From Octopus vulgaris (lineage: Eukaryota): DNA of 64,000 bases. The notes under the pieces were generated by a model, which saw nothing but the letters and a program-made list of their open reading frames with translations, was not told the origin of the DNA and ran no database searches. Each line of letters opens with the position of its first letter. Position 1 is the first letter of the stretch. Made by a program: the position numbers and the translations under genes. Below are positions 5,715-61,817 of this stretch, piece after piece. Location: contig OX597822.1 of NCBI GenBank assembly GCA_951406725.2, forward strand, positions 50,840,001-50,904,000, written 5' to 3'.

Positions 5715-5911
5715 GCGCCACTGATGCTATAGAAGGGAATGCCAAAGCCTATACGACTTGGCTGCAGTGACATCACGACTCGTTTCTAGAGCTGAGTGAA
5801 CTGGAGCAACGAGAAATAAAGTTTCATACTCAGGAGGACAACATACAGTCCTCTCCAGGTCTCGAACTCATTACCTGATGAGTGTGAGCCCGACGCTCTA
5901 ACCACTGGGCT
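5715..5911 (-). mobile_element. tRNA-derived SINE (third family)
   Basis: Minus strand agcccagtggttagagcg (A box) ... gagttcgagacc (B box), then ttgctccagttcactcagct. Confidence 0.65.
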
Positions 5912-5925
5912 ATATCTATCTATCT

Positions 5926-5956
<31 letters not shown>

Positions 5957-5957
<1 letters not shown>

Positions 5958-7384
5958 CATATCATCAAGGTATTTGAGAGGGTGGTGAGATCTCAAATAA
6001 CCCAATTTCTGGAAAGCAGCAGACGGCTGATCTCCAACCAACATGGGTTCCGTAATGGAAGGGACTGCCTAACGCAGCTCCTGCATCAATTTGAGGACAT
6101 TTTGAGAGCTTTGGGAGAGGGCTCCAACACCGATGTCATCTACCTTGATTTCAGTAAGGCCTTCGACAGGGTCGATCACAAGATCCTATTGAAAAAACTA
6201 TCCAACATTGGTGTCTCTGGAAAGTTACTGAAATGGATTAAGTGTTTCCTGACAGACAGATCTCAACATGTTGTAGTTGAAGGGGTAAAATCAAGCCCAG
6301 CCAAAGTCAGTAGTGGCGTTCCGCAAGGCACTGTGCTGGGCCCACTTCTTTTCATCATTTACATTAATGACATTAATGACATCATCAAGCACAGCAACAT
6401 AAAAATCTTTGCAGATGACTCCAAGCTACAGAAGGTCATAAATGAGGCGAGTGACCGGACATGCCTTCAGTCAGATCTACTGGCTGTTATCCAATGGGCA
6501 GAAAAAAACAATATGCTGCTGAACGAGGATAAATTTGAGCTAATCCACTTTGGAAAAGAGGATGCCCTGAAACTCCCATACTCCCTTCCTTCAGGTGAAA
6601 CTCTCGCGGCGTCCAACAACATCAGAGACTTGGGAGTAATTGTGGACAACAACGTAAGCTGGGCCACTCATATAAACACCAAAGTTGACATGGCCCGCAG
6701 AATGTGTTCCTGGATTCTCAGAACTTTCCAGTCGAGAGATATCCACACCATTATCCTTCTCTTCTCCACTTTTGCCCGACCCCACCTTGAATACTGTTGT
6801 CCACTGTGGTCTCCCCACACAATACAAGGTATCATAAAAGTCGAAGCACCTCAAAGGGCAATCACAAAAAAGATAGATGGCATGACAGGCCTCGACTATT
6901 GGGGTCGACTAGAAAAGCTAAAACTCTATTCTCTCCAACGTCGTCGTGAGCGCTACATCATCTGCATGATGTGGAAAATATTCCATCAGCATTGCCCAAA
7001 TGATGTTGGCATCACCTTTAAGGTACATCCAAGGCTTGGGCCCCGTGCCATCCGCCCAAAACAAAAATCGCACTCTCATCTCATAACAACAATACGGCAC
7101 AATTATTTCACCTCAATTGGCCCCGCTCTCTTTAACATTACACCAAAACACATTAAAACAGAAACTGACCCTATAGGGTTCAAGAAGTCTTTGGACAGAT
7201 TCCTTCAAGAAATCCCGGATAAACCCCCTACACCCGGATATGTCTCTGTAAACAATAACTCTCTACTTGAGTGGGCCATAGTGCCCAAATTCTGACTTGA
7301 AAGACTTCACCAGGTGGTGCTATTAAGTTAGACATGGCCTGGGCCAATAATGGCCGAAACCTATCAAAGTATCAAAGTATCAAA

Positions 7385-18546: not shown

Positions 18547-18584
<38 letters not shown>

Positions 18585-18747
18585 GTTATCACCATACTAA
18601 TATGGCATTCTTATAAAAATAAGAATAAAGCTGTCCGCTTATTAGCTCCATGAGGCCATCGCCTTAAGTTAGCTATTTGATACACAAACTGTATCCATAT
18701 AACCTTCGAACAAGGGAGGTCAGTCGCTCCACACTATTTGACCGGCA

Positions 18748-18789
18748 GCTACAGACGCGTTTCGGGGTATTGCCCCTTTTCAATGCAGC
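18748..18789 (-). ncRNA. Minimal type I hammerhead ribozyme, U3-A8 core variant
   Basis: gctgca-TTGAAAA-gggg caata cccc-GAAAC gc GTC-tgtagc. Confidence 0.75.
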
Positions 18790-19131
18790 GTAGCCAGCCA
18801 GTAGGTGTCGCTTCCGACAATCTCTGTTCGATGGTTTTATTTACCTAGTTTCGGTGGAATACATCCACTTGTTTTCAATAATAGAAATATTAAAATTACT
18901 AAGTCTCTCTAAAAGAGAACAGCGGCAGCGTTCCCGGAAAATAATAGTTATCGCCATACTAATATGGCATTCTTATAAAAATAAGAATAAAGCTGTCCGC
19001 TTATTAGCTCCATGAGACTTAGTAATTTTAATATTTCTATTATTGAAAACAAGTGGATGTATTCCACCGAAACTAGGTAAATAAAACCATCGAACAGAGA
19101 TTGTCGGAAGCGACACCTACTGGCTGGCTAC

Positions 19132-19173
19132 GCTGCATTGAAAAGGGGCAATACCCCGAAACGCGTATGTAGC
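19132..19173 (+). ncRNA. Minimal type I hammerhead ribozyme, U3-A8 core variant
   Basis: gctgca-TTGAAAA-gggg caata cccc-GAAAC gc GTA-tgtagc. Confidence 0.75.
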
Positions 19174-19404
19174 TGCCGGTCAAGTAGTGTGGAGCGACTG
19201 GCCTCCCTTGTTCGAAGGTTATATGGATACAGTTTGTGTATCAAATAGCTAACTTAAGGCGATGGCCTCATGGAGCTAATAAGCGGACAGCTTTATTCTT
19301 ATTTTTATAAGAATGCCATATTAGTATGGCGATAACTATTATTTTCCGGGAACGCTGCCGCTGTTCTCTTTTAGAGAGACTTAGTAATTTTAATATTTCT
19401 ATTA

Positions 19405-19513
<109 letters not shown>

Positions 19514-19997
19514 GGTAAAAAGGAGCACACGAGTTGATATATATGAAAAAACAAGTCAAGATAGAAAATGCTAAAATAATTTTATAAAGAACATTTCAGT
19601 ATCGGTTTCGGTCATTTTGAGACCTTTTCAACTGTAACGATTAAATAATTAAATTTAGAAAAATTAAAAGAAAAGTTTTTTTAAAGGAATATTTGTATAG
19701 TGTTCAAATATAAGTGGCATTTTTCTTGTTTCTGCCTTTCTCTGTCTCTTTTGTTTGCACTTGTGTGTTCGAGGTCGTTGTGAATTCTTGGTAGGGTAGA
19801 AGAAGAAGAAGGATGATGAGGAGAAGGGGTGGAAAAATTCGGGAGTGCCTTGATTGTCGTATTTTGAATGGTCAGTGGCGGCTAGATGTTGCAGTTCAAT
19901 TCAGGAGAATATTTCTATTCAAAGGTTTGTTTATAGAATTTGCGTAGGTGTTATACTAAAAAGCATTAGTGATAAAGTTAAGAATTAGAAGGTGGAG

Positions 19998-20240
19998 CAG
20001 AAGAAGAAGAAGAAGAAGAAGAAGAAGAAGAAGAAGAAGAAGAAGAAGATGATGATGATGATGACGACGATGTTGATGATGATGATGAAGAAGAAGAAGA
20101 AGAAGAAGACGAAGAAGAAGAAGAAGAAGAAGAAGAAGAAGAAGAAGAAGAAGAAGAAGAAGAAGATGATGATGGTGGTGATGACGACGATGATGATGAT
20201 AATGATGATGATGAAGAAGAGGAAGAAGAAGAAGAAAGAG
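19998..20240. repeat. Compound (AAG)n/(ATG)n microsatellite within the PLE 3'UTR
   Basis: Direct reading; explains the poly-K/M and poly-L/H ORFs. Confidence 0.95.
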
Positions 20241-20419
20241 AAGGGAGAATATGAATGAGTGGAAGTAGTGAGGTGTTGTATGACTTGAAGTTGGCACGTT
20301 ATGGATTATAGCTGTGATTGGGGCTGATTTGTAATGGATTCTTTGGAAAAATAATATTTGCGTGTGTATTTGTGTTATTCTAATGCTGAGGTATATAAAT
20401 CGTTTGTCGTAGACCCGTT

Positions 20420-21671
20420 AAGAAGTGGCCTGTATTTTGTAATAAAGAGAGTTTCTTTACTTATTCGTTGTCTCGAGGTTGTATCGTCCCTGAATTGGTA
20501 GAGGGGGGAAATCCTTAAGCCTGGTGTTTTGTTGTTGGCGCAAGTATCTATGTGTTGGCTGAAAGCTATTTTTTCTGTTTTGGGGAATTTTTATCTGGGA
20601 TCTGTGCAGGGCCATTCTTTTACGCAAACTATTTTTTGTTTGGCCTATGTACTGCTCTTGACACCCAGAGCAGGTTAGTGTGTATATCAGGTTCTCCGAA
20701 GCACATGTGAAGTTGCTTTTCACTGTAAACCGTTGTCCCTGTTTGATGGAGAACTCTGATCTCTCGATTAGATAATCGCATATCCCGCAATTGGGTCTTC
20801 CACATTTTTTTACTGTTGGCTTCTGTGTTCAAGAGTGTATTCGGGCTTGTGTTAGGAGACTTTTCATAGATTTAGGCTGTCTCTTGCTTTTTATGATCGT
20901 ATGTGTTTGGAGTATTATGTTCATTCTGTGGTCTTTTTTAGGAGGGTTATGTTTATGAGGATGGTGCCGAAGGCTCCATTGTTGAGAGGATTGTGTGTTG
21001 AGATGTATGGTAAGGCTTTTGGTCGTAAATTTGTCTTTGATTTGGGATGTCTCAGTTCCTGGATGTTAAGTTGAAGGGCACGTTGTATGCATATGTCAAT
21101 AAGTGAAGGTGGATAGTTCCTGGTGATGAGGGTATCTTTTATTTCTTGTAGTCGTGTGTCTCTGGTGTTAGCATTAGAAACTATAGTACATATCAGTTTT
21201 GCTAGATTGAATGTGATATTCATTCTGGTGTGTCTGGGGTGGCATGAATTGAATTCTTTGAGTTTCTCTATATTTTCATGCCAAAGAATGAAACAGTTAT
21301 CTAGAAATCTCTTCCAGTTGTTTTCTATGTAGATGGAGAAAGGGCTGCCATATCTTTCTACGATACAGACTGATTTCTAGATATCCTATGACTAGGTTGG
21401 CAAAGGAGGGAGCCATTCGTGTACCCATCGCAGTCCCCGATTTTTGTCGGTAGAAGTTGTCTTTGAAGGCGAAGAAGTTATTTTCCAGGATGATTTTAAC
21501 CCCTTCTATTACGAATTCTTTTTTGATGCGATGTGGGAGTTCGTTGGCGTAATTCTCTAGCCAGAATTGAATTGCCTCTATTCCTAGGTTGTGGGGGATA
21601 TTGGAGTAGAGGTTGACTACACCGAAGGATACCTGTAGGGTGTTTTTGTTTATAGTATTCGGTAGGTGCAA
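20420..21671 (-). pseudogene. Disrupted PLE RT + Cys linker + GIY-YIG endonuclease
   Basis: VVNLYSNIPH, YRQKSGTAMGTRMAPSFANL, WKRFLDN (catalytic DD changed to DN), KCGRPNCGIC linker, NLIYTLTCSGCQEQYIGQT; frameshifts and an internal deletion. Confidence 0.88.
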
Positions 21672-21791
21672 ACAAGAGAGACAGAGAAATGCAGAAACAA
21701 GGAAAACGCCACTTATATTTGAACACTATACAAATATTCCTTTAAAAGAACTTTTCTTTTAATTTTTCTAAATTTAATTATTTAATCGTTA

Positions 21792-21829
21792 CAGTTGAAA
21801 AGGTCTCAAAATGTCCGAAACCGGTACTG
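21792..21829 (+). ncRNA. Minimal type I hammerhead, U3-A8 variant, in Neptune pLTR (second copy on minus strand 19597-19634)
   Basis: cag-TTGAAAA-ggtc tcaaaat g(a/t)cc-GAAAC cg GTA-ctg; palindromic stem III ACCGGT. Confidence 0.7.
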
Positions 21830-21902
21830 AAATGTTCTTTATAAAATTATTTTAGCATTTTCTATCTTGGCTTGTTTTTTCATATATATATATATATATA
21901 TA

Positions 21903-23387
21903 CTAGCAGTATCGCCCGGCGTTGCTCGGGTTGTAAGGGAAATAACTATATAAGCATTTTTAGAGAGTTATAGCCAAAAAGTAGCAAAAAAATGCATTAA
22001 AAATTGAAAAAAAATTAAGGTAAATTTTTCTTTAAATCGTTGACACATCGTAGATATTTTTAGAGAGTTACTTCCCTTATATAAAAGCGAAAAAATGCAT
22101 TAAAATGGAAAAATATGATGGTAATTTTTTTTTAAATCGTAGACTCATCGTAGACGCGCGCTAATACCCAGAAGGGCTCGTTTGTTATTCTGGGTAACTT
22201 TCTGTAAAATTATTAAAATTTTGTTCAAACATCGCTATAGAAAATGGGTTATTAGCTAATATTCAATTGGGTGTACAACAAAATTTTACGATAGAATTTG
22301 TTATTCTGGGTAACTTTCTGTAAAATTATTAAAATTTTGTTCAAACATCGCTATAGAAAATGGGTTATTAGCTAATATTCAATTGGGTATACAACAAAAT
22401 TTTACAATAGAATTTGTTATTCTGGGTAACTTTCTGTAAAATTATTAAAATTTTGTTCAAACATCGCTATAGAAAATGGGTTATTAGCTAATATTCAATT
22501 GGGTATACAACAAAATTTTACGATAGAATTTGTTATTCTGGGTAACTTTCTGTAAAATTATTAAAATTTTGTTCAAACATCGCTATAGAAAATGGGTTAT
22601 TAGCTAATATTCAATTGGGTATACAACAAAATTTTACAATAGAATTTGTTATTCTGGGTAACTTTCTGTAAAATTATTAAAATTTTGTTCAAACATCGCT
22701 ATAGAAAATGGGTTATTAGCTAATATTCAATTGGGTATACAACAAAATTTTACGATAGAATTTGTTATTCTGGGTAACTTTCTGATACCCATAATAATAT
22801 TTATGGCAAAATAGGCCTTAATTTCATTTAAGATTGTGGGAAATAACAAACTATCCTTTCTTTCGGTTTGTTTACGTTTAGCGTAATGATTTCAAATAGG
22901 CTCATTCGAAAAAGTAAATAGAAATAGTCTAAGGCTTTACTCTTCTGGGAAAGTCAGTGGCTTGGTCCAGTTTCTTCAGAAAACTCACCGAAAGAAACAG
23001 TTTTTAAATTTTCACTCCATTCAGGTACCAATTCGTTTTCTTTATCGCTGTCGGATTCACTGTTTTCACTTTAATAGCTGCCAACTTGCAAAACAAAGGA
23101 GGAGAAGGGTGATAGCGTCAGTGAAACAATTCGCTCCCTTTGTGTGTGTGTGCGTTTGCGTGTGGTGTAAACCAGACTAAGAAAAACATTTGACACGCAC
23201 ACCAGAATGTGAGTTTTCTGTAAATTTTGCTTAATTGGAGTTTAAATTTTAAAAACTGGACCTGGCATGACGCGATGCATTGTACTCTTAAAATTGCTAG
23301 GTAAATTGTAATTGAAGAAATCCTATATTGTAGATTTGTATAACTCCCAAAGGGAGGCAGATAAAATCTGCCTTTTATAATAAGAGA
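21903..23387 (-). mobile_element. Complete non-autonomous Helitron (1485 bp)
   Basis: Minus strand starts A|TCTCTTATTATAAAAGG and ends CCCGAGCAACGCCGGG hairpin ... CTAG|T; inserted between A and T with no TSD. Confidence 0.88.
22181..22784. repeat. Tandem array, 116-bp unit x ~5.2, inside the Helitron
   Basis: tttgttattctgggtaactttctg recurs at 22181, 22297, 22413, 22529, 22645, 22761. Confidence 0.97.
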
Positions 23388-30734: not shown

Positions 30735-31951
30735 TCAGTGTGTTTCAAATGCCTATATGTTTATGTATAATATACATAAGAGTATGTACGTATATGGGTG
30801 TGTATTTTCATATTTATAATGTAAGTTTACTGTTCCTGTATATTAAACTTGTCTTTTACTCATCTATGGCCACTGCAGAATCTTTAAATTTTCGGCTGTT
30901 TCACTTTAACTGTCCTATCTATATACTTACCTTAGCTAAAAATTCATTTATATTGTTGCTTACATCTTATACACCATTTTATGCTAATTCCTTTTAATTA
31001 AAAAAAAAATAGTTACTCTTCTTATTTCGTGCTTTTTGGTAACATTAAGGTTGGATAAAACCTTTAATATTGAATATGAAGCAATATATCTTTACTTTTA
31101 CTGATGTAACTCTGACCAATTTCGACTATCTCTACATGTTATGTATATATATGTATATACACACACACACACTCACTCAAACGTACGCACATGTACACAC
31201 ATATACACACACACATGTATGTGTATATAAATTATGTGGTAATGCTTCAACAAGAATTAAAACACCCGATCACTTGGATTTAAAATGATTTGCGGTTCCT
31301 TTATGTGTGTGCGAGGGTTTGTAAGAATTTGTATGCATATTCAAAGATGGATTGTTGGTGTAACCATTATGCTTCTGAGGTCTGATAAGCTACCTTAATT
31401 TTTTTCATTAAGGTGAGTATATAAATGCGTATTGTATAATGCCCGGCAGGCAACAGATTCGCATTGCTTCTTCTGCACTGAAATTGATAGTACAAGAAGT
31501 TGGCAAAACGGTCTGAATGTCAGTGTAAGTCATTCAGTTAAATGCATTTTCAGTTATCGATCTTCTGAATTAATGGTTTTATATAGTCGTCATGAAATAA
31601 TTTAATTGATCGGATTTTCTGGAATTCTAGTCACATTGATCCTCTATATGAAATACCGATTTCAATTGATTACTATATGAGCTATTAACCTAGTTCAAGC
31701 ATTTTATGATATGAACACGATTCTCTGAAGCCACGTCATTTTACTACTGAAACATACATATGTACATATATATATGCACACACATACGCACACATAGACA
31801 TGTATCATATGTATAAGCATATATACATGTATGTATATATACGTACGTATACACATATATATATGTATATATATATGTATATTTGAAAATACATACATAT
31901 ATATATATAGATAAATGAAAGAATGGAGTCGAACGACGATTTAACAAAGTT

Positions 31952-32039
31952 CCTTTATTCTCGACATATGTTTCGAAGACTGCATATTCTTAATTCCGAA
32001 GGAATAAAGGGTGCATTATGCCGTCTTCTCATCAGGAAA
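31952..32039 (-). ncRNA. Type I hammerhead ribozyme (left arm copy)
   Basis: Reverse complement of 36660-36747. Confidence 0.8.
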
Positions 32040-32617
32040 GACAAAGAACTTATGTCAGCATCATGAGGACCAAAATCTTTTAGATGACTACCCACACGGA
32101 GTCCATAGTGATAATGAGTGTTTCGTTAAAATATTCCGTTAAAAGCAGTGACGTCAAAATTGGTTGGATGGATAAGATTATAAAAAGTTCAAGAGTTCAA
32201 AAATGGTTGGACGGGGCAAGTTCTTAGAATAGGGGGGTGACAGAGTGCAAGTCGTATGTATCGTGATGCGTTGTTGTTTGCTTTTGCCAATGAGATTGAG
32301 TGCCTATGTGTGTGTATGTATATAATTGCATTCGTGTCTATGTGTGTGTATATGTGTGCGTGATTGTTTGTGTGGGGGGATAAATGCCAAATACATCTAG
32401 TGGTGAAGTGACAAGTTTGTGTTTGTGTGCTTGATTGTGCTTATGATAGAGAGAGAGAAAGAGAGAGAGGGGGAGAGGTAGAGAGACAAAGGTAGAACAT
32501 ACCCCAACGAATTTGGAAGTAGGCCTTCAAGTAACGGAGTATAAAATAATTTGTCTATGGTCTTGTTGTAGATGTGGAACCAAATTAGTAAATTCAAGGA
32601 GGTTCTCTATATTAATA

Positions 32618-34090
32618 ATCATTCATATGAGTGGAAAGTGTGTTTCTGCCAGTGCATGCACCTATAGGATTTTTCTACCATTGTGTTTACTGAAGGGAAT
32701 TTGGCGAAAAGTATATAGAAAAGTTCGGAATTACAGACGGCACAATATTTTCTGCCCTTATCAAAAGGAAAGGATACAGACTATATGGACCATTCCAGCT
32801 TGAAATTTATATTGCTGACCTTAAGACGCCAAACTAATTTATTTAGTCCTGTACTTTGTTGTTTCCTCTTATCTCGGAAAGTTGAAAAATGATTGGAAAT
32901 CCTCTGGGGTAATTTAGATGTAGTCGCCCAAACATAGATGAAGACACCGGTACCAGAAGAAACCTTACACTGGTAAATGGAATTTCTAATTTTGGAATTA
33001 CTGGACAATAACTTTTTATCTGTTAGGGTTTACCTCCGAGACTAAGATGGAGTTTTTATTGTTATGATTGCTGTTAATATAACTGCTAGCACTGACCACT
33101 ATACTGTTTCTATTATTGTTATTATTATTATTAATTGTACTATTTCCTGTAATATCCCTGACTATAGAAATGCTGCCGTTGTTATCATCAATGCTACCAC
33201 TGTTATTAGAAATGCTGTCGTTGTTACCACTAACACTACCACTGTTAATAATCCGACTAATATTATTATTAATATTACCACTGTAAACGCCAACGCTGTT
33301 ATGAATGTTGCTATTATCAATACTATTTCTATTATTATTATTGTATGTTTGGTTGGAATTGGTAAGAATAGTGTTGAACTCCCGGGTGAAGAATCCTTGT
33401 TTAGCAGCTTGTTATTATGGGAGGCAATAATTTGCGATAGATTTCTAGTGTTGGAGAATGCAATCCTTAGCTTATGCGAATTGATAGTAGAGTAATACAT
33501 AGAATTCCTGGGAAAGTTCCTAGCTACGGCTTCACGGAACTGAAAAGGAAGGTTTGACTTGCTTTGTTTTCCGAAAGGTATGACAAACCAGATATAGCTT
33601 GTAGTGGACTTAGAATTGTTCAAGGTGTTACCAGTTACATTAAAGGGAATATTTCTGTGCTGGAAAATTGGGGTTGGTTGCCAATTTTTCTTAAGTATAC
33701 TGGTGCCGACGTTGTTAGAGCTGAAATCATTATTCTCACTATTTCTATTGTTATTAGTTTTCTCATCCTGAGAATATAGATTCCGACCAAATCGGCTATC
33801 TGGGCGCTGTCTGTACTTTCCATTAGCACATCGAACGCGTTGGGGCTATCTCTGCGGACCCACAACTTATAATCGAACTGTATGAAAGACATTCTAGCTG
33901 CTAATATCACATTAATTTCCTCCCTGGAGAGGCCTGCCTTATTATGTGCGTCCCATAAGGCCTTATTGAGTACACTAGGGTTTTTCGAAGGGTAGAAACT
34001 AGATATATCGAATTGTATAAATTTTGTGTTTTGCTTATTAGTAATAGAAGTAAACCACTCTACGACCTGAGTGGAGTTAGACCACAAGCT
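32618..34090 (-). pseudogene. Deleted copy of the PLE RT-GIY-YIG ORF (left arm)
   Basis: Mirrors the right arm but lacks the YRDD-containing segment. Confidence 0.85.
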
Positions 34091-36081
34091 AGTCCAAAAT
34101 ACATACCTATTTTAATCAATAAGTTAAAACTCAGCTTGTGGTCTAACACCACTCAGGTCGTAGAGTGGTTTACTTCTATTACTAATAAGCAAAACACAAA
34201 ATTTATACAATTCGATATATCTAGTTTCTACCCTTCGAAAAACCCTAGTGTACTCAATAAGGCCCTACGGCACGCACATAATAAGGCAGGCCTCTCCAGG
34301 GAGGAAATTAATGTGATGTTAGCAGCTAGAATATCTTTCATGCAGTTCGATAATAAGTTGTGGGTCCGCAGAGATAGCCCCAACGCGTTCGATGTGCTAA
34401 TGGGAAGTACAGACAGCACCCAGATAGCCGATTTGGTCGGAATCTATATTCTCTATGAATTGGCCGACCAATTCCCGGACATCTGTGGCGGTCTATATCG
34501 AGACGATTGTCTACTTTACCTCCAGAATGCTCCGAACAATAGGATACAGAAGATTAAGAACAGATTAGCTACATTTTTTAGCAGAATGGGCTTGAGCATA
34601 GTTTTTGACGACGAATTAACTAAAGCCAACTTCTTAGATGTTACCCTAAATCTGCAGAATAATTCATACTTCCCTTATCATAAGCCTTCTACTAATCTTA
34701 AATATATGAGCATTTTCAGTAACCATGCCAAAAATATTACCGATAATTTAGTTAAAAATATTTCATTAAGACTGTCAAAATTATCTGCTAAGGTCGACAT
34801 CTTTAACCAGAAAGCGGAATTTTATAACGCCGCCCTGTCAAAAGCCGGTTATAGAGATAAAGTATCAAATAACGGCCCGGCCCATTCTAAACCTATATAT
34901 ACTTCTCAGGATAAGAAACTAATAACAATAGAAATAGTGAGAATAATGATTTCAGCTCTAACAACGTCGGCACCACTATACTTAAGAAAAATAATTTACG
35001 GACCAGGGGAGGCAATCGGCAACCAACCCCAATTTTCCAGCACAGAAATATTCCCTTTAATGTAACTGGTAACACCTTGAACAATTCTAAGTCCACTACA
35101 AGCTATATCTGGTTTGTCATACCTTTCGGAAAACAAAGCAAGTCAAACCTTCCTTTGCAATTCCGTGAAGCCGTAGCTAGGAACTTTCCCAGGAATTCTA
35201 TGTATTACTCTACTATCAATTCGCATAAGCTAAGGATTGCATTCTCCAACACTAGAAATCTATCGCAAATTATTGCCTCCCATAATAACAAGCTGCTAAA
35301 CAAGGATTCTTCACCCGGGAGTTCAACACTATTCTTACCAATTCCAACCAAACATACAATAAATAATAATAGAAATAGTATTGATAATAGCAACATTCAT
35401 AACAGCGTTGGCGTTTACAGTGGTAATATTAATAATAATATTAGTCGGATTATTAACAGTGGTAGTGTTAGTGGTAACAACGACAGCATTTCTAATAACA
35501 GTGGTAGTATTGATGATAACAACGGCAGCATTTCTATAGTCAGGGATATTACAGGAGATAGTACAATTAATAATAATAATAACAATAATAGAAATAGTAT
35601 AGTGGTCAGTGCTAGCAGTTATATTAACAGCAATCATAACAATAAAAACTCCGTCTTAGTCTCGGAGGTAAACCCTAACAGATTAAAGTTCTTGTCCAGT
35701 AATTCCAAAATTAGAAATTCCATTTACCAGTGTAGGGTTTCTTCCGGTACCTGTGTCTTCTTCTATGTTGGGGCGACTACTTCTAAATTATCCCAGAGGA
35801 TTTCCAATCATTATTCAACTTTCCGAGATAAGAGTGAACAACAAAGTACAGGGCTAAGTAAATTAGTTTGGCGTCTTAAGGTCAGCAATATAAATTTCAA
35901 GCTGGAATGATCCATATAGTCTGTATCCTTTCCTTTTCATAAAGGCAGAAAATATTGTGCCGTCTGTAATTCCGAACTTTTCTATATACTTTTCGCCAAA
36001 TTCCCTTTAGTAAACACAATGGTAGAAAAATCCTACAGGTGCATGCACTGGCAGAAACACACCTTCCACTCATATGAATGA
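34091..36081 (+). pseudogene. 5'-truncated PLE RT + Asn-rich linker + C-terminal GIY-YIG (one frameshift, two stops)
   Basis: WSNTTQVVEWF, FIQFDISSFYPS, FDVLMGSTDSTQIADLVG, GLYRDD, NFLDVTLNL, SIYQC..YVGAT..QRISNH, CAVC..E, CMH; RT signature is Naiad-like rather than Neptune/Poseidon. Confidence 0.88.
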
Positions 36082-36659
36082 TGATTAATATAGAGAACCT
36101 CCTTGAATTTAATAATTTGGTTCCACATCTACAACAAGACCATAGACAAATTATTTTATACTCCGTTACTTGAAGGCCTACTTCCAAATTCGTTGGGGTA
36201 TGTTCTACCTTTGTCTCTCTACCTCTCCCCCTCTCTCTCTTCTCTCTCTCTATCATAAGCACAATCAAGCACACAAACACAAACTTGTCACTTCACCACT
36301 AGATGTATTTGGCATTTATCCCCCCACACAAACAATCACGCACACATATACACACACATAGACACGAATGCAATTATATACATACACACACATAGGCACT
36401 CAATCTCATTGGCAAAAGCAAACAACAACGCATCACGATACATACGACTTGCACTCTGTCACCCCCCTATTCTAAGAACTTGCCCCGTCCAACCATTTTT
36501 GAACTCTTGAACTTTTTATAATCTTATCCATCCAACCAATTTTGACGTCACTGCTTTTAACGGAATATTTTAACGAAACACTCATTATCACTATGGACTC
36601 CGTGTGGGTAGTCATCTAAAAGATTTTGGTCCTCATGATGCTGACATAAGTTCTTTGTC

Positions 36660-36747
36660 TTTCCTGATGAGAAGACGGCATAATGCACCCTTTATTCCTT
36701 CGGAATTAAGAATATGCAGTCTTCGAAACATATGTCGAGAATAAAGG
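36660..36747 (+). ncRNA. Type I hammerhead ribozyme with extended stem II, in the PLE 3' repeat
   Basis: tttc-CTGATGA-gaagac...gtcttc-GAAAC atat GTC-gaga; intact core. Confidence 0.8.
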
Positions 36748-36950
36748 AACTTTGTTAAATCGTCGTTCGACTCCATTCTTTCATTTATCTATTGTAAAAA
36801 AACACACAAATTCCCACACGAAAGCACGTGATTTTTGCCCTTGGCATGCAGCTTCAACCATGCTTTCTGACGTAAATTTGCTACCCGGGTATCGGTTAAC
36901 AAAATTATCCATACTAGGATAATTCATTCAACTACTTAAACATTTATATA

Positions 36951-37021
<71 letters not shown>

Positions 37022-37148
37022 CAAAAACTGTCTGATGAACGGCAACGAGAAACTCAGAGTAACAGATTTTGTTGAATTTTCTGCTGCTTAAAATAAAGTA
37101 TATATATATATATATTATGTATATATATATATATATGTATATACATAC

Positions 37149-44430: not shown

Positions 44431-45335
44431 TATAATAATATAAATAATATATAAATATGTGCATATATACATACATATATGTACATACCTACATATATCT
44501 GTATATATACATGCATATATGGGTACAAGACATCAAAAGAAAGAAAAATGTTGAACACACTGAGAAATGAAAACATAAAAACAAAAACATAGAAAACGAA
44601 CTTCTTTCTAACAACGAAAAAAAAACCCAAACAAACAGAGAAAGGAGACATGCAACATTAAGAATAGCCCCCTTCACCAGTTGTCCCTACTCCGCATTTG
44701 GAAAGCAAGGACAAAACGCGACTTTGTTGAAATAGTCCTTCCCTTAAAGCAAATTAAATAAAATTTGTGATTTTTTTTCGCGGAGGGTTAAATTGTTAAC
44801 AAGAACAATACAGTAAAAACAAACGGTGAGAGCTGTTAAGCTAAGGCGATAGAAAAATTATTATGAACGCTAGGAAAGCGAGCTTATTAGAGGAGACAGG
44901 TATAAGCACTTGTTGCCTTTTGGAAGGAAATGAGCAGAAAGATTGATTCTCTTTCATCACGTGTCATCGACGACAGAGTCAAGGAGGAAGAGGGAGAGAG
45001 AGGGAACGATGAAGAGGAGAGAAGAAGGACAGGGAAGGGTGGGAGAGAAAAACCAGAAAGGATGAAGAACAAGAGAGGGAGATAGATAGACAGAGAAGAG
45101 ATAATAGCGATAGAGAGTAGTAGAGATAGTTTAAGAAGGAGAGAGGGAGAGAGAAAAGGCAGAGAAGAGATAGTAGAGATAGAAAAGTGCGCATCGTAAT
45201 TATTAAGACAAATTTACTTGGAAAAGGATGCGCGGCGTTCGATCATATAATAATATAAATAATATATAAATATATGCATATATACATACATATATGTACA
45301 TACATACATATATATGTATATATACATGCATATAT
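44431..45335 (-). mobile_element. Non-coding ~815-bp-unit element with terminal redundancy; relative of 60.5-61.8 kb
   Basis: ~90-bp direct repeat at 44431 and 45246; minus strand ttattatatgatcgaac...ccaagtaa...aataattacgatgcgcact aligns with 61040-61112. Confidence 0.75.
44668..44720 (-). ncRNA. Decayed non-circularly permuted hammerhead-like motif
   Basis: cgcGTT-ttgtcctt-g-ctttc-CAAA tgcg-gagt-agggacaa-CTGGTGA-agggg; two core substitutions. Confidence 0.45.
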
Positions 45336-46209
45336 GAGTACTCTCCCATCCTTCCCTATTCCAAGTAAATATTTTTCTCTGCGTCTTGACAAAAATTGTT
45401 TACTTTGAAACCAATTGATTTGAATGTTCAAGTGTTTTGATTCTCTATATGAGGGTTTTTTCAGGTTCTCATTATCGTCTTTGCACGTGTGGGAATATTT
45501 TTCTATTATTAAGCGTGTATTTTTTAGTATTTGCCTATACACGTTTACATGCACCGATGTCTATATTTGTTTCAACTGCTTCAAGTATGTGCTTATATAT
45601 ATTTCATGGAAAATTGCGAGCAAGAGAAATGATGTTCTTAAGATTATAATAAACCTGGAAATGTACAGACAAGTTATTACACCTGGAAAAGTTCACGAAT
45701 ATGAATTTCTAAATATTTTTGTTTTTCATTTCTATGATTGAATTATTATTCTTATTAAATTAAAATAAAAATTTCTAATCTAAGAAATAAGAATAAGATT
45801 AGTAATTCCACGGTTTGTGTTGTATTAATTAAGCTTAGTTAAATATATTTAGCTTATAAAATAAAATAAATAGTTAATTATACTTAAATCCAAGTTTTTG
45901 CCTTGCTTATATTTTTTCATGTTATCTTACCTCACAATATATTTTAATACAAATTTATGTTGCGTGTGACCAAAAATATGAAATTTTTCATGCTTTTTTT
46001 CTATATTACAGTCCTATTGAATCCAGGGTTTTATTTAAATAAACTCTATTTACAAATTCTATACTTGGAATGACCAATTTTATATACTATTGGATTTTAC
46101 TCACAAGGTATTAGAATCTTATATATATACCATTCTGCCTAAATAATGGATCTGCAAATGCAATATCCCTGCATATTTCACATCTATTTTCATTCCTCCA
46201 CTTCCCTCT

Positions 46210-56431: not shown

Positions 56432-57515
56432 ATATATAAATATATATATATATATATGTTTGTGTGTGTGCGTGTGTATTATTACAAATTTGTGATTTTA
56501 CCAATAAAACCTCACCTCCTATTTCAGGATAGCCTTATTGTATGGAATACACATAGAAAGTTATATCTAATAAAATAATATAAGCATTTAAAAACCTATA
56601 TAAAATAGAATAACATTATCTTTTTTAATATTTGAAAAAATATATATAACTTACCTGTTATTAGTCTGTGGGGAAAGAAGATATTTTTTATCGAAGCTAC
56701 ACATAATTCTGCGCTGGAGGGGTGTTTATCATACCTATACCTAATACATAAATCCACCAGTGCGTCCTCAGGCTATTTATGTTATTGTTATTGTTATTAA
56801 CGGATCAAAGTTAAAACTAAATATTATAAATCATATTAAATAGAAAAATAAGAATATGAATAAAATATAATAATATTATATAAATATAATAAAAATATAT
56901 CAATTACAAATATATTTTTTTAAATTTCAAAAATTTAAAAAATTTAAAAAAAATTATATACATAAATTAACAACCTGTTTGTACAGTCACAAAATATTAT
57001 TTGAGAAGTTCGAGAAAGGAACAAGAGCGCTGAGGATAATGAAGAAATAAAAAGATATTTTTTCCAATATTCTAACGACTTTTTTCTTAACCCACACGCA
57101 CACGCACACATACACACACACATATGCGTATGTATATACATAAATTTGTATTCTTTCATTTTGTCCTTCTTTCTATCAGCACTTTCACTCTTCCTTCATT
57201 CCAATCTTCATTATTTCGTTCCCCCTCTCTCACATTTCCTGGCCTTCTCTTCAAGCTCACTTTCTCTCCTCTTTCACTTCACTGTGTCTGTTTCATTTTC
57301 CCTCGCCCCTCCTTCATTCTTCTATCCCTCTGCCTCTACCTCCGTTTCTTCTCTCCCGCTGTGACTGGTGTTCGGCCAGGCCTGACCTTTCTTTCTTGGT
57401 TTGACTACCATCAGTGCAAAATCTATATTCCTCTTTGTGCATGTTAAATCACATGTCCCTGCCGTAAGGCTTTACTTCCATACATGCCAGCTAAATTAAA
57501 TTCGTCCTTAGTCGA

Positions 57516-57575
57516 GCAATCTCGAATATAACCAGCCGAAATTGGAAAGATAATCTGGAACTCGACTGAGGATAG
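57516..57575 (+). ncRNA. Non-circularly permuted hammerhead-like motif, family B
   Basis: gcaATC-tcgaat-ataaccagcc-GAAA ttg...actcga-CTGAGGA. Confidence 0.45.
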
Positions 57576-57677
57576 AAAACTCCGACGGACCTGCCCTTAT
57601 TTTCCTTGTATCGTCTGTATGGATATTTTGTTGTTCCTTTTTTGTATCTCAAAACTGTTTAGATGCTTTGCGTTCTT

Positions 57678-57753
<76 letters not shown>

Positions 57754-59811: not shown

Positions 59812-59869
<58 letters not shown>

Positions 59870-59872
<3 letters not shown>

Positions 59873-60460
59873 GGACAGATGATACAAAAAAGGGGACAAC
59901 AAAACATCCAGACAGATGATTTAAAAAACGAAACACGAAAAAGCAAGGACGAGTCATTCTAGGTTTTTGTTTCCTTGGTCGAGTTCTAGATTATCTTTGC
60001 AATTTCGGGTGGTTATACTCGAGATTGCTCTAATCTGGCCAGCCCCAAAGAAAAACTAAGCTAAGAGCACTAGATTCCTTGGATGAAAGCCGCGAATGTT
60101 CCACTACAATCCGTGGAATATCTATATTCCACCCCATGCCTGTCATCTCTTATGTCCCTGCCGTATGGCTTCACTTCCATCGAACTTCATTTAATTCGTA
60201 CTTAGTCAAAAGTCACCTGTTGTTAATTTCCAGTTATTTGTATTTCTATTTCTCCCTGTTTTTCCGTCATTGTTTTCCTATACATTCGCTGCTTTCTTCC
60301 AAGGGATATAGCGCTCTTAGATTAGATTTTCCACGGGACTGGCCAGATTGGAACAATCTCGAGTATAACCTGCCGAAATTACAGAGATAATCTGGAACTC
60401 GACTGAGGAAAGAAAACTCCGAATGTCTTACCCCATTTGTGTATTCTTTCTTTTTTATAT
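59870..60460. mobile_element. Inverted pair of family-B repeats (also at 57480-57675)
   Basis: ~59950-60090 is the diverged reverse complement of ~60291-60430; each contains the permuted HHR-like motif (59972-60028 minus, 60354-60420 plus). Confidence 0.75.
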
Positions 60461-60505: not shown

Positions 60506-60885
60506 ATGCGTTCTAACTTATTTTTCCACCGTCTAGGCCTAAAAAAAAGCCCTTATTGTTGGTTTCCTTGTCCTGTTATTCTTTATTTGTACTGTTTTTT
60601 CTACTGTTTTTTCTTCATTTGTATTGCTTTTACGTCCTGTTCTTGTCACTTGTTTTACCCCTCTGCAAAATAATTTTATTTACTTCCTTTTGCAGGAAGG
60701 ACTGCTTCGGCTGGCCGTGTTCTGCCCTTACCTTCGAAACACGCATTGAATCGAACTGAAAGGGAATTTTCCTTGTATTGTTTGTCATGTACTCTGTTTT
60801 TTCGTGGTTAAAAAAATGTCCGTTTCCTTGTTTGATTTAATGTTTTCGTTTCTCGTTGTTCTACGTTTATTTCTGGTGTCCTGTA

Positions 60886-60964
<79 letters not shown>

Positions 60965-61813
60965 TTGTATATATACATATAGATGTAAGTATGTACATAT
61001 ATGTATATATGCATATGTTTTATTTATTTATTATATTGTTATTATATGACCGAACACACGCGTTGTTTCTCTTCTCCAAGTAAGTTTTTATTTGAATAAT
61101 CATGACCCGCACTCTTATTCTTTACTTGACCTTTCCTCCCTGCCGGTCTGTCTTCCTCTCTACTTGTCTCTCTCCTTCTTATTTTTCACGCTTTCTGGTT
61201 TCTTTTCCTCTCTCTCTCTCTCTTTCTCCTCCTCCTCCTCTGTCTGGCCGTTGACCGGTGTGCTACTAAAACTTTCTTTCAGCTCGTGCTTTCAACAAGC
61301 ATACATCGACTTCTCTGTCTTTCGCAAGCCGCTTTTTCACATGCGTTCTAACTTATTTTTCCACCGTCTAGGCCTAAAAAAGCCCATATTGTTGGTTTCC
61401 TTGTCCTGTTATTCTTTATTTGTACTGTTTTTTCTTCATTTGTATTGCTTTTACGCCCTGTTCTTGTCACTTGTTTTACTCCTCTGCAAAAGAATTTTAT
61501 TTAATTGCTTTTGCAGGAAGGACTACTTCGGCCTGGCCGGGTTCTGCCCTTACCTTTGAAACACTCATTGAGTCGAACCAGGGGCAGCTGATGAAGGGGA
61601 ATTTTCCTTGTATTGTTTGTCCTATACTCTGTTTTTTCGTTGATAAAAAAGTCCGTTTCCTTGTTTGATTTTATGCTTTCCTTTCTCGTTGTGTTCTACG
61701 TTTATTTGTGGTGTCATGTATTCATATATATATGCATGTATATATACATATAGATGTAAGTATGTACATATATGTACGTATATAAGCATATGTTTTATTT
61801 ATTTATTTATTAT

Positions 61814-61817
<4 letters not shown>
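60506..61817 (+). mobile_element. Partial tandem (~1.6 units) of a ~0.82-kb non-coding element, family A
   Basis: atgcgttctaacttatttttccaccgtctaggcct at 60506 and 61341, with ~470 bp of continued similarity; ends in (TA)n. Confidence 0.85.
61538..61599 (+). ncRNA. Non-circularly permuted hammerhead-like motif, family A (partial second copy 60716-60765)
   Basis: GTT-ctgccctt-a-ccttt-GAAAC...aggggcag-CTGATGA-agggg. Confidence 0.55.

Follow-up and report, generated by a model that had tools for sequence, protein, structure and literature searches.

A non-circular hammerhead ribozyme relic in an Octopus vulgaris repeat and a possible split-core wiring in Naiad Penelope-like elements

Known non-circular hammerheads and the elements related to them

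Hammerhead ribozymes can be written as three blocks: S (stem III strand, cleavage site, stem I strand), G (stem II strand, GAAA, stem III strand) and C (stem I strand, CUGAnGA). The canonical types I, II and III have the cyclic order S-C-G. Eckert et al. (2023; PMC10085705) described a permuted form, type SGC, comprising HRIMA-1 and a variant, all given examples of which come from metatranscriptome contigs. Their scheme of six permutations explicitly assumes that a stem II strand follows directly after CUGAnGA and is inseparable from it, and a single-base insertion between A9 and G10.1 is tolerated in their descriptor as an optional U. Another form, type CSG, is represented by two metagenome sequences. 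In that study no genome of a known organism yielded a convincing non-circular form, and one bacterial case was doubtful. The term 'type-SGC' occurs in this one paper within the literature searched, and the available parts of PMC3088659, PMC13725137, PMC10162972, PMC7936874 and bioRxiv 10.64898/2026.09.16.752053 deal with other hammerhead variants only.

Craig et al. published 54 consensus sequences of Naiads, a clade of Penelope-like elements whose stated target is (TA)n (PMC8557442). The available text reports no canonical hammerhead in them; it flags only 'HHR_core' or 'HHR_half_core', cores that fit no descriptor, and notes that Naiads thrive without canonical hammerheads. Non-LTR retrozymes, by comparison, are low-GC, non-coding tandem units of typically 150-450 bp with one type I hammerhead per unit, for which an origin from the ends of Penelope-like elements and movement via circular RNA have been proposed (PMC7229834; bioRxiv 10.64898/2026.07.22.740005). 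The descriptors given in the available text of the 2026 preprint are of type I only.

The octopus repeat considered here, called family A, resembles each of these systems in part. With type SGC it shares the order of the cleavage, GAAA and CUGAnGA blocks, a short linker between stems I and II, and a helix joining the far ends of these two stems. Unlike type SGC as published, its stem II strand appears to lie upstream, two helices (X and H) are added, and it is a genomic repeat of an animal. The cyclic order and the joining helix recur in type CSG; there the opening lies between stem III and this helix, and in family A it would lie between A9 and G10.1. Features in common with the Naiads described are (TA)n targets, insertion as partial tandems and inverted copies, and a pyrimidine-rich 3' region, and stem I and the core are nearly identical to those of the Octopus Naiad consensus; unlike Naiads, the unit has no EN-RT ORF. 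Like non-LTR retrozymes, it is a non-coding, low-GC tandem unit with a single hammerhead relic. That relic is not of type I, in contrast to retrozymes, and sits in a longer unit (815-835 nt) as a predicted non-circular split-core ribozyme.

The family-A repeat and its ribozyme relics

The window, that is, the whole 64-kb stretch of DNA analysed, is AT-rich and filled with microsatellites, and it holds LINE and Penelope-like remnants. One Penelope-like remnant (31907-37095), Hydra clade-like by eye, contains an RT-like frame at 33959-35062 without a Pfam match and a 1.9-kb inverted copy at 97% identity. A decayed hammerhead in canonical order lies at about 37028-37066, adjoining (TA)n. Another such remnant, on the minus strand at 19537-21889, shows broken frames, a C-terminal GIY-YIG (Pfam E 1e-4) and a 224-nt inverted repeat. 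A reverse transcriptase frame of LINE type, 490 aa long (RVT_1, E 1e-25), is found at 5820-7292 on the plus strand. The window also contains a near-perfect tandem array (22181-22784), in which a 116-bp unit is repeated 5.2 times with 98% identity, and a 139-nt perfect inverted repeat (18878-19016 versus 19267-19405) accompanied by a 76-nt direct duplicate at 18579 (together 18579-19405).

Family A occurs at two places. The copy C44, on the minus strand at 44431..45341, amounts to 1.12 units of the non-coding monomer, namely one 815-nt unit plus a 96-nt terminal repeat. Its TA-rich 5' terminal repeat (45246..45341, minus) is identical at 92 of 96 positions to the 3' terminal repeat (44431..44526, minus), the end of which aligns with 61814, also the end of the second occurrence. 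The latter is a partial tandem of about 1.6 units on the plus strand at 60506..61817, with copies A60 and B61 that agree at 345 of 367 positions when the TA tract is left out. The original prediction held that C44 is homologous to this tandem, and this is confirmed: 45335 to 44431 (minus) and 60957-61814 (plus) can be aligned over their entire length, with 617 of 776 columns identical and many gaps, and without the TA tracts and the ribozyme the alignment score is 137, a value that 200 shuffles do not approach (91 at most). The predicted period of 815 bp is correct as the spacing of C44's own terminal repeats, but the tandem repeats at 833-835. Both occurrences stop at a common homologous point in TA-rich DNA and start at differing points, and no target-site duplication is evident by eye at the ends of C44. 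Only low-complexity reading frames are present in the unit, the longest without a Pfam match. Inspection of the frames and a Pfam scan of one of them revealed no Naiad coding remnant, and the ORF with N-terminal GIY-YIG and RT that marks Naiads is absent. The Naiad mode of insertion is present: partial tandems of 1.1 and 1.6 units end in TA-rich DNA, and an inverted pair occurs in a second repeat, family B.

The relic in C44 is read on the minus strand throughout. The 5' strand of helix X (44784..44788) makes four of five pairs with 44669-44673 and is followed by hairpin H (44742..44783), of which the outer stem keeps five of eight pairs and the inner 6-bp hairpin (44750-44767) is retained. 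Next comes the proposed upstream 5' strand of stem II at 44737..44741, whose first base would be G10.1; it pairs 5/5 with 44701-44705 and has the same sequence in all three family-A copies (44741-44737; 60696-60700; 61517-61521). Block S, with a stem III strand, GUU and a stem I strand, occupies 44707..44721, and the predicted cut site is 44715/44714. Block G (44692..44705) consists of a stem II strand, CAAA instead of GAAA (G12C at 44700) and a stem III strand. The split block C (44669..44691) consists of a 3-bp remnant of helix P, a stem I strand, CUGGUGA with the A6G change at 44677, and the X' strand. The stems of C44 close on the core in register, I with 8/8, III with 6/6 and II, via the upstream strand, with 5/5 pairs, and about 10 nt are missing between stem III and stem I'.

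Several details of the original prediction are reproduced. Stem I pairs 8/8 as claimed both in C44 (44714-44707/44688-44681) and in B61 (61544-61551/61580-61587), GUU stands at the predicted cleavage site in all three copies (H17 at 44715, 60721 and 61543), and C44 has CAAA at 44700-44697 and CUGGUGA at 44680-44674. Stem III, claimed likewise, is found in C44 and A60 (60716-60720/60739-60743), but has two mismatches in five pairs in B61.

The relic of A60 (60658..60765, plus) has helix X, H 8/8, II 5/5, III 5/5 and intact GUU and GAAA; a 13-nt deletion has cost it stem I' (the 3' strand of stem I), and with it stem I, as well as most of CUGAUGA including C3-A6. B61 (61479..61599, plus) has both cores intact and complete helices (X 5/5, H 8/8, II 5/5, P 6/6, I 8/8) except stem III with 3/5. 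Unconstrained RNAfold of B61 yields X, H, P and I with a z of -2.44, two of 200 shuffles being equally stable; z for C44 is only -1.65. None of the family-A copies in the window (C44, A60, B61) is intact.

G12 is the general base of the hammerhead. As had been supposed, C44 is very probably dead, judging from its sequence: it would be unable to cut because G12 and A6 are both changed and because stem I, extendable to 12 bp (-15.5 kcal/mol), would sequester IIb, the stem II strand of block G. Four differences between the terminal repeats of C44, a low-complexity repeat, place its decay after insertion at about 2% (95% interval 0.6-5%), and two changes among 12 core nucleotides at such decay have P=0.025 (0.002-0.12). 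The core may have been lost before C44 inserted. That a subfamily consensus should restore GAAA and CUGAUGA, as originally proposed, is an unsafe prediction. The full hammerhead core (C3 U4 G5 A6 N7 G8 A9, G12 A13 A14 A15, U16 H17; PMC3088659) is present in B61 and in the family-B relics F60 and D57, while C44 (A6G, G12C) and A60 (without C3-A6) lack it; in turn, the stems do not all close in register in B61 (III 3/5) or A60 (I lost).

Family B, which has the S-G-C hammerhead layout and no hairpin H, is found at 57404-57733 (plus), 59814-60099 (minus) and 60103-60460 (plus). The inverted copy is 5'-truncated and abuts the direct one in the manner of Penelope-like insertions, and family A lies directly downstream. 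Relic F60 (60325..60418, plus) has intact cores, an AUC site at 60358 and helices I 5/5, P 7/7, upstream II 4/6 and X 6/9, with no hairpin H. In the inverted copy, relic E60 (59963..60056, minus) has a broken CUGA core and pairs 5/6 in upstream II, 8/9 in X, 5/5 in I and 4/4 in III. Relic D57 (57514..57580, plus) combines intact cores, III 4/4 and I 4/5 with deletion of the upstream X, II and P strands. From copy to copy, the length of helix X changes (5 versus 4), and the change is matched on its two strands; its duplex energies are near zero, and each copy is damaged. Family B weakly fits the split-core layout.

Pairing kept across copies and the position of stem II

Covariation was assessed by simulation, not R-scape: helices were defined on A60 and B61 only, and C44 was then scored. 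MAFFT misplaces the stem I' strand of C44, and pair counts are therefore based on coordinates. Because of the 13-nt deletion in A60 and the stem III mismatches in B61, stem I can be compared only between C44 and B61, and an intact stem III only between C44 and A60; the reference is a patchwork of two copies and the test a single comparison with three copies overall. Among the 18 pairs of stems I, III and upstream II, C44 keeps 13 unchanged, has three compensatory changes and two G-U wobbles, and breaks none. Random placement of its eight substitutions gives P=8e-5 with the substitution spectrum of the flank and 2.7e-3 if all are transitions. Losses in C44 fall in the added helices (one of five pairs in X, three of eight in H), and the joint P with X and H included is about 2e-4. 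These values bear out, for stems I and III, the earlier claim that pairing is kept while sequence changes. The upstream stem II shows only conservation and wobbles in the three family-A copies, without a compensatory change.

As a stand-alone descriptor match, C44 is only moderately unusual. With a cut of stem I at least 8, III at least 4, II at least 5 and at most two core changes, it is the only match among 15 raw matches in the real window, and the cut is reached in 73 of 1985 dinucleotide shuffles of the window. What counts strongly is that diverged copies keep their pairing, not the descriptor match. B61 and F60 are missed by the descriptor owing to their stem III mismatches. A looser cut was dropped, being satisfied by 1380 of 1985 shuffles, and a pattern scan of bacterial and archaeal genomes returned 10 loci that were taken as chance, with stem III in 0/10. 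An exact-core type I scan gave no match in the window. Neither did Rfam at gathering score, and E-value scans of the window returned mostly TA-repeat microRNA noise and no hammerhead. The silence of Rfam is uninformative because, as a control, the canonical-order relic at 37032 was missed too.

The original prediction spoke of a permuted hammerhead. The relic does have the non-circular order S-G-C (III'-GUU-I, II-GAAA-III, I'-CUGAUGA), as do all six relics of families A and B in the window, none of which shows the canonical order. Since the partner of stem II appears upstream, it probably does not belong to the published type SGC. The upstream strand directly follows the 8-bp hairpin H, H directly follows strand X, and strand X is complementary to the stretch downstream of CUGAUGA. 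Stem II thus seems to have its 5' strand ahead of the cleavage block and not after CUGAUGA; the chain would then be opened between A9 and G10.1 and clamped by the extra helix X. If the layout holds, this opening breaks the rule behind the six published permutations, that block C is uninterruptible. No report of a hammerhead tolerating an opening between A9 and G10.1 was found in the literature searched. The joining helix of type SGC is recognizable as P, with 6 bp in B61, 7 bp in F60 and a 3-bp remnant in C44. A type SGC with its ends joined and reopened between A9 and G10.1 is exactly the family-A layout, and reopened before P' it is type CSG.

It is unlikely that family A is an ordinary type SGC, with the purine run after CUGAUGA as the 5' strand of stem II and with X and the upstream strand either incidental or forming a competing off-state. 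Weak downstream pairing can form, X' being partly complementary to IIb: five pairs (two wobble) are possible in B61 and six (three wobble), with one extra A, in C44, and type SGC is of proven activity (PMC10085705). However, in fixed register the duplex energies of upstream II and X are -3.0 and -4.4 kcal/mol in B61 vs. -1.9 kcal/mol for the downstream stem II, and -1.9 and -5.7 vs. -3.9 kcal/mol in C44. Furthermore, the published descriptor requires CGAAA and CUGAUGA(U)G and is matched by no copy in the window, and a plain SGC is impossible in family B (at most 2/6 pairs) and in seven Naiad types read by eye.

Naiad consensus sequences, proposed origin and significance

The Naiad consensus supplement (PMC8557442) was read at its CUGAnGA matches, with pairing judged by eye and counts not machine-checked; motifs split by a line end are missed, and type names follow from the following header and the metadata order. 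The matches listed for the four CUGAnGA variants numbered 52/62, 43/43, 19/23 and 19/25, the rest lying beyond the Naiad file. At least 10 of the 54 consensus sequences show, by eye, the layout X-H-IIa-P-S-G-P'-C-X' with intact cores, in seven types from five phyla (Bfor; Chem-3; Amil/Aacu/Anas; Movir-2; Plae; Dst-4; Obim/Ovul; 3' UTRs). Helix lengths by eye are 5-8 bp for X, 6-9 for H, 4-6 for II, 5-16 for P, 5-13 for III and 2-6 for I, with a UH site; the stem I of only 2 bp belongs to Bfor. Stem II is fully paired except for one mismatch in Aacu, which has another in stem I. No two of the seven types have the same upstream strand sequence, and the strand begins 0-1 nt after hairpin H. In all seven it opens with a G opposite the C before GAAA, which we take to be the conserved G10.1-C11.1 pair. 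For the bases after CUGAnGA, three consecutive pairs with IIb are possible in none of the seven.

Among the other records of this supplement, Esco fits in part (stem II 4/5 pairs at best), and six from the nematode section (Nbra-1, -2, -3, Hcon and two more) fit type CSG with a joining helix by eye. About seven arthropod and hemichordate CUGAnGA matches in non-coding context show neither layout on first reading; one of these (supplement part 17) looks close to plain SGC. In the bivalve records, no such motif was seen among the CUGAnGA matches read by eye. The motifs of split-core and CSG layout share one non-circular cyclic order, because reopening of type SGC gives either of the two. B61 and the Octopus Naiad consensus have 14 consecutive bases in common by eye, spanning stem I' and the core, and the link of family A to Naiads rests on the RNA motif.

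We consider it likely that C44 is a dead copy of a Penelope-like unit, non-autonomous and related to Naiads, the active relatives of which would have a hammerhead opened between A9 and G10.1 and clamped by X. This best explains the observed homology, block order, kept pairing and core damage of C44 together with the layout read by eye in Naiads. The wiring in active relatives would run 5'-X, hairpin H, IIa, P, III', UH (cut) I, linker, IIb-GAAA-III, P', I'-CUGAUGA, X'-3'. It would have the cyclic order of the non-circular types SGC and CSG with a new opening point, helix X clamping the loose ends and helix P connecting stems I and II at their far ends, like the 'I' helix of type SGC. Active family-A copies would presumably be catalytic. 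Cutting of a tandem transcript after GUU would release unit-length RNA with ends held paired by X, II, P and III, and paired ends would favour ligation into a circle; RtcB-type ligation has been shown for type I retrozymes (PMC7229834). A Naiad RT/endonuclease acting in trans would then use a TA-rich target for priming and start at a fixed point, about 270-285 nt beyond the cut (the end of B61 lies about 271-274 nt past its cut site), and copying for more than one round would yield the 1.1- and 1.6-unit insertions with a common 3' end. Template jumping or a tandem master would also explain fixed 3' ends with 1.1 and 1.6 units.

A broader reading appears to us evenly balanced between right and wrong: Naiads and their non-autonomous offspring would form a large reservoir, spread across animals, of hammerheads that are active and non-circularly permuted, including a seventh wiring, and non-circular permutation would be ancestral to the clade. 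On the reservoir reading, the seventh wiring, opened between A9 and G10.1, would have been rebuilt via a junction of helices, and this junction would clamp the cut ends so that they can circularise. Later re-opening would have given CSG in nematodes and the split-core form in ctenophores, cnidarians, acanthocephalans, ostracods and cephalopods.

It seems quite improbable that the fold is conserved but non-catalytic in this lineage, either because it serves the RT as an RNA handle or because the lineage descends from a core-dead master, in which case the subfamily consensus would keep CAAA and CUGGUGA. The two core changes, the 10-nt loss in P and the damaged H of C44 do exceed what decay of about 2% after insertion would lead one to expect, its stem I is extendable to 12 bp, and Naiads are said in PMC8557442 to thrive without canonical hammerheads. 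However, the age behind this argument comes from only four differences in a low-complexity repeat (interval to 5%, P to 0.12), and the intact cores of B61, F60, D57 and the published consensus sequences point to selection for catalysis in relatives. We regard as very improbable an assembly of the ribozyme between neighbouring tandem units or molecules with a more conventional junction, like the minimal Penelope and newt dimers: the unit is found in partial tandems and dimeric hammerheads are known in animal repeats (PMC7229834), but about 125 nt of a single copy suffice for all six helices to form, and the single-copy 3' UTRs of autonomous Naiads offer, by eye, an equally closed set of pairings. 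Chance pairing in a pyrimidine-rich repeat, for which the shuffled-window matches and the lack of an Rfam hit might speak, is scarcely credible given the compensatory changes, the fact that a second family and published elements show it again, and the uninformative silence of Rfam.

The split-core wiring appears to be an order for which no description was found, in a known ribozyme and a known retroelement setting. Neither a split-core hammerhead nor non-circular hammerheads in Naiads are reported in the literature searched, a search that left most subscription papers and preprint supplements outside. The C44 locus itself is a dead copy, and its value lies in the covariation and in the pointer to the wiring, for which RNAs of about 120 nt would give a direct test. 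If the layout is active, the inseparability of CUGAnGA and stem II falls, and the limit of six wirings with it. The lack of canonical hammerheads in Naiads would then be explained, and a large class of animal ribozymes would have been missed by genome searches. The question of the hammerhead's role in Penelope-like elements would, if the wiring is active, gain the Naiads, the clade that seemed to be the exception.
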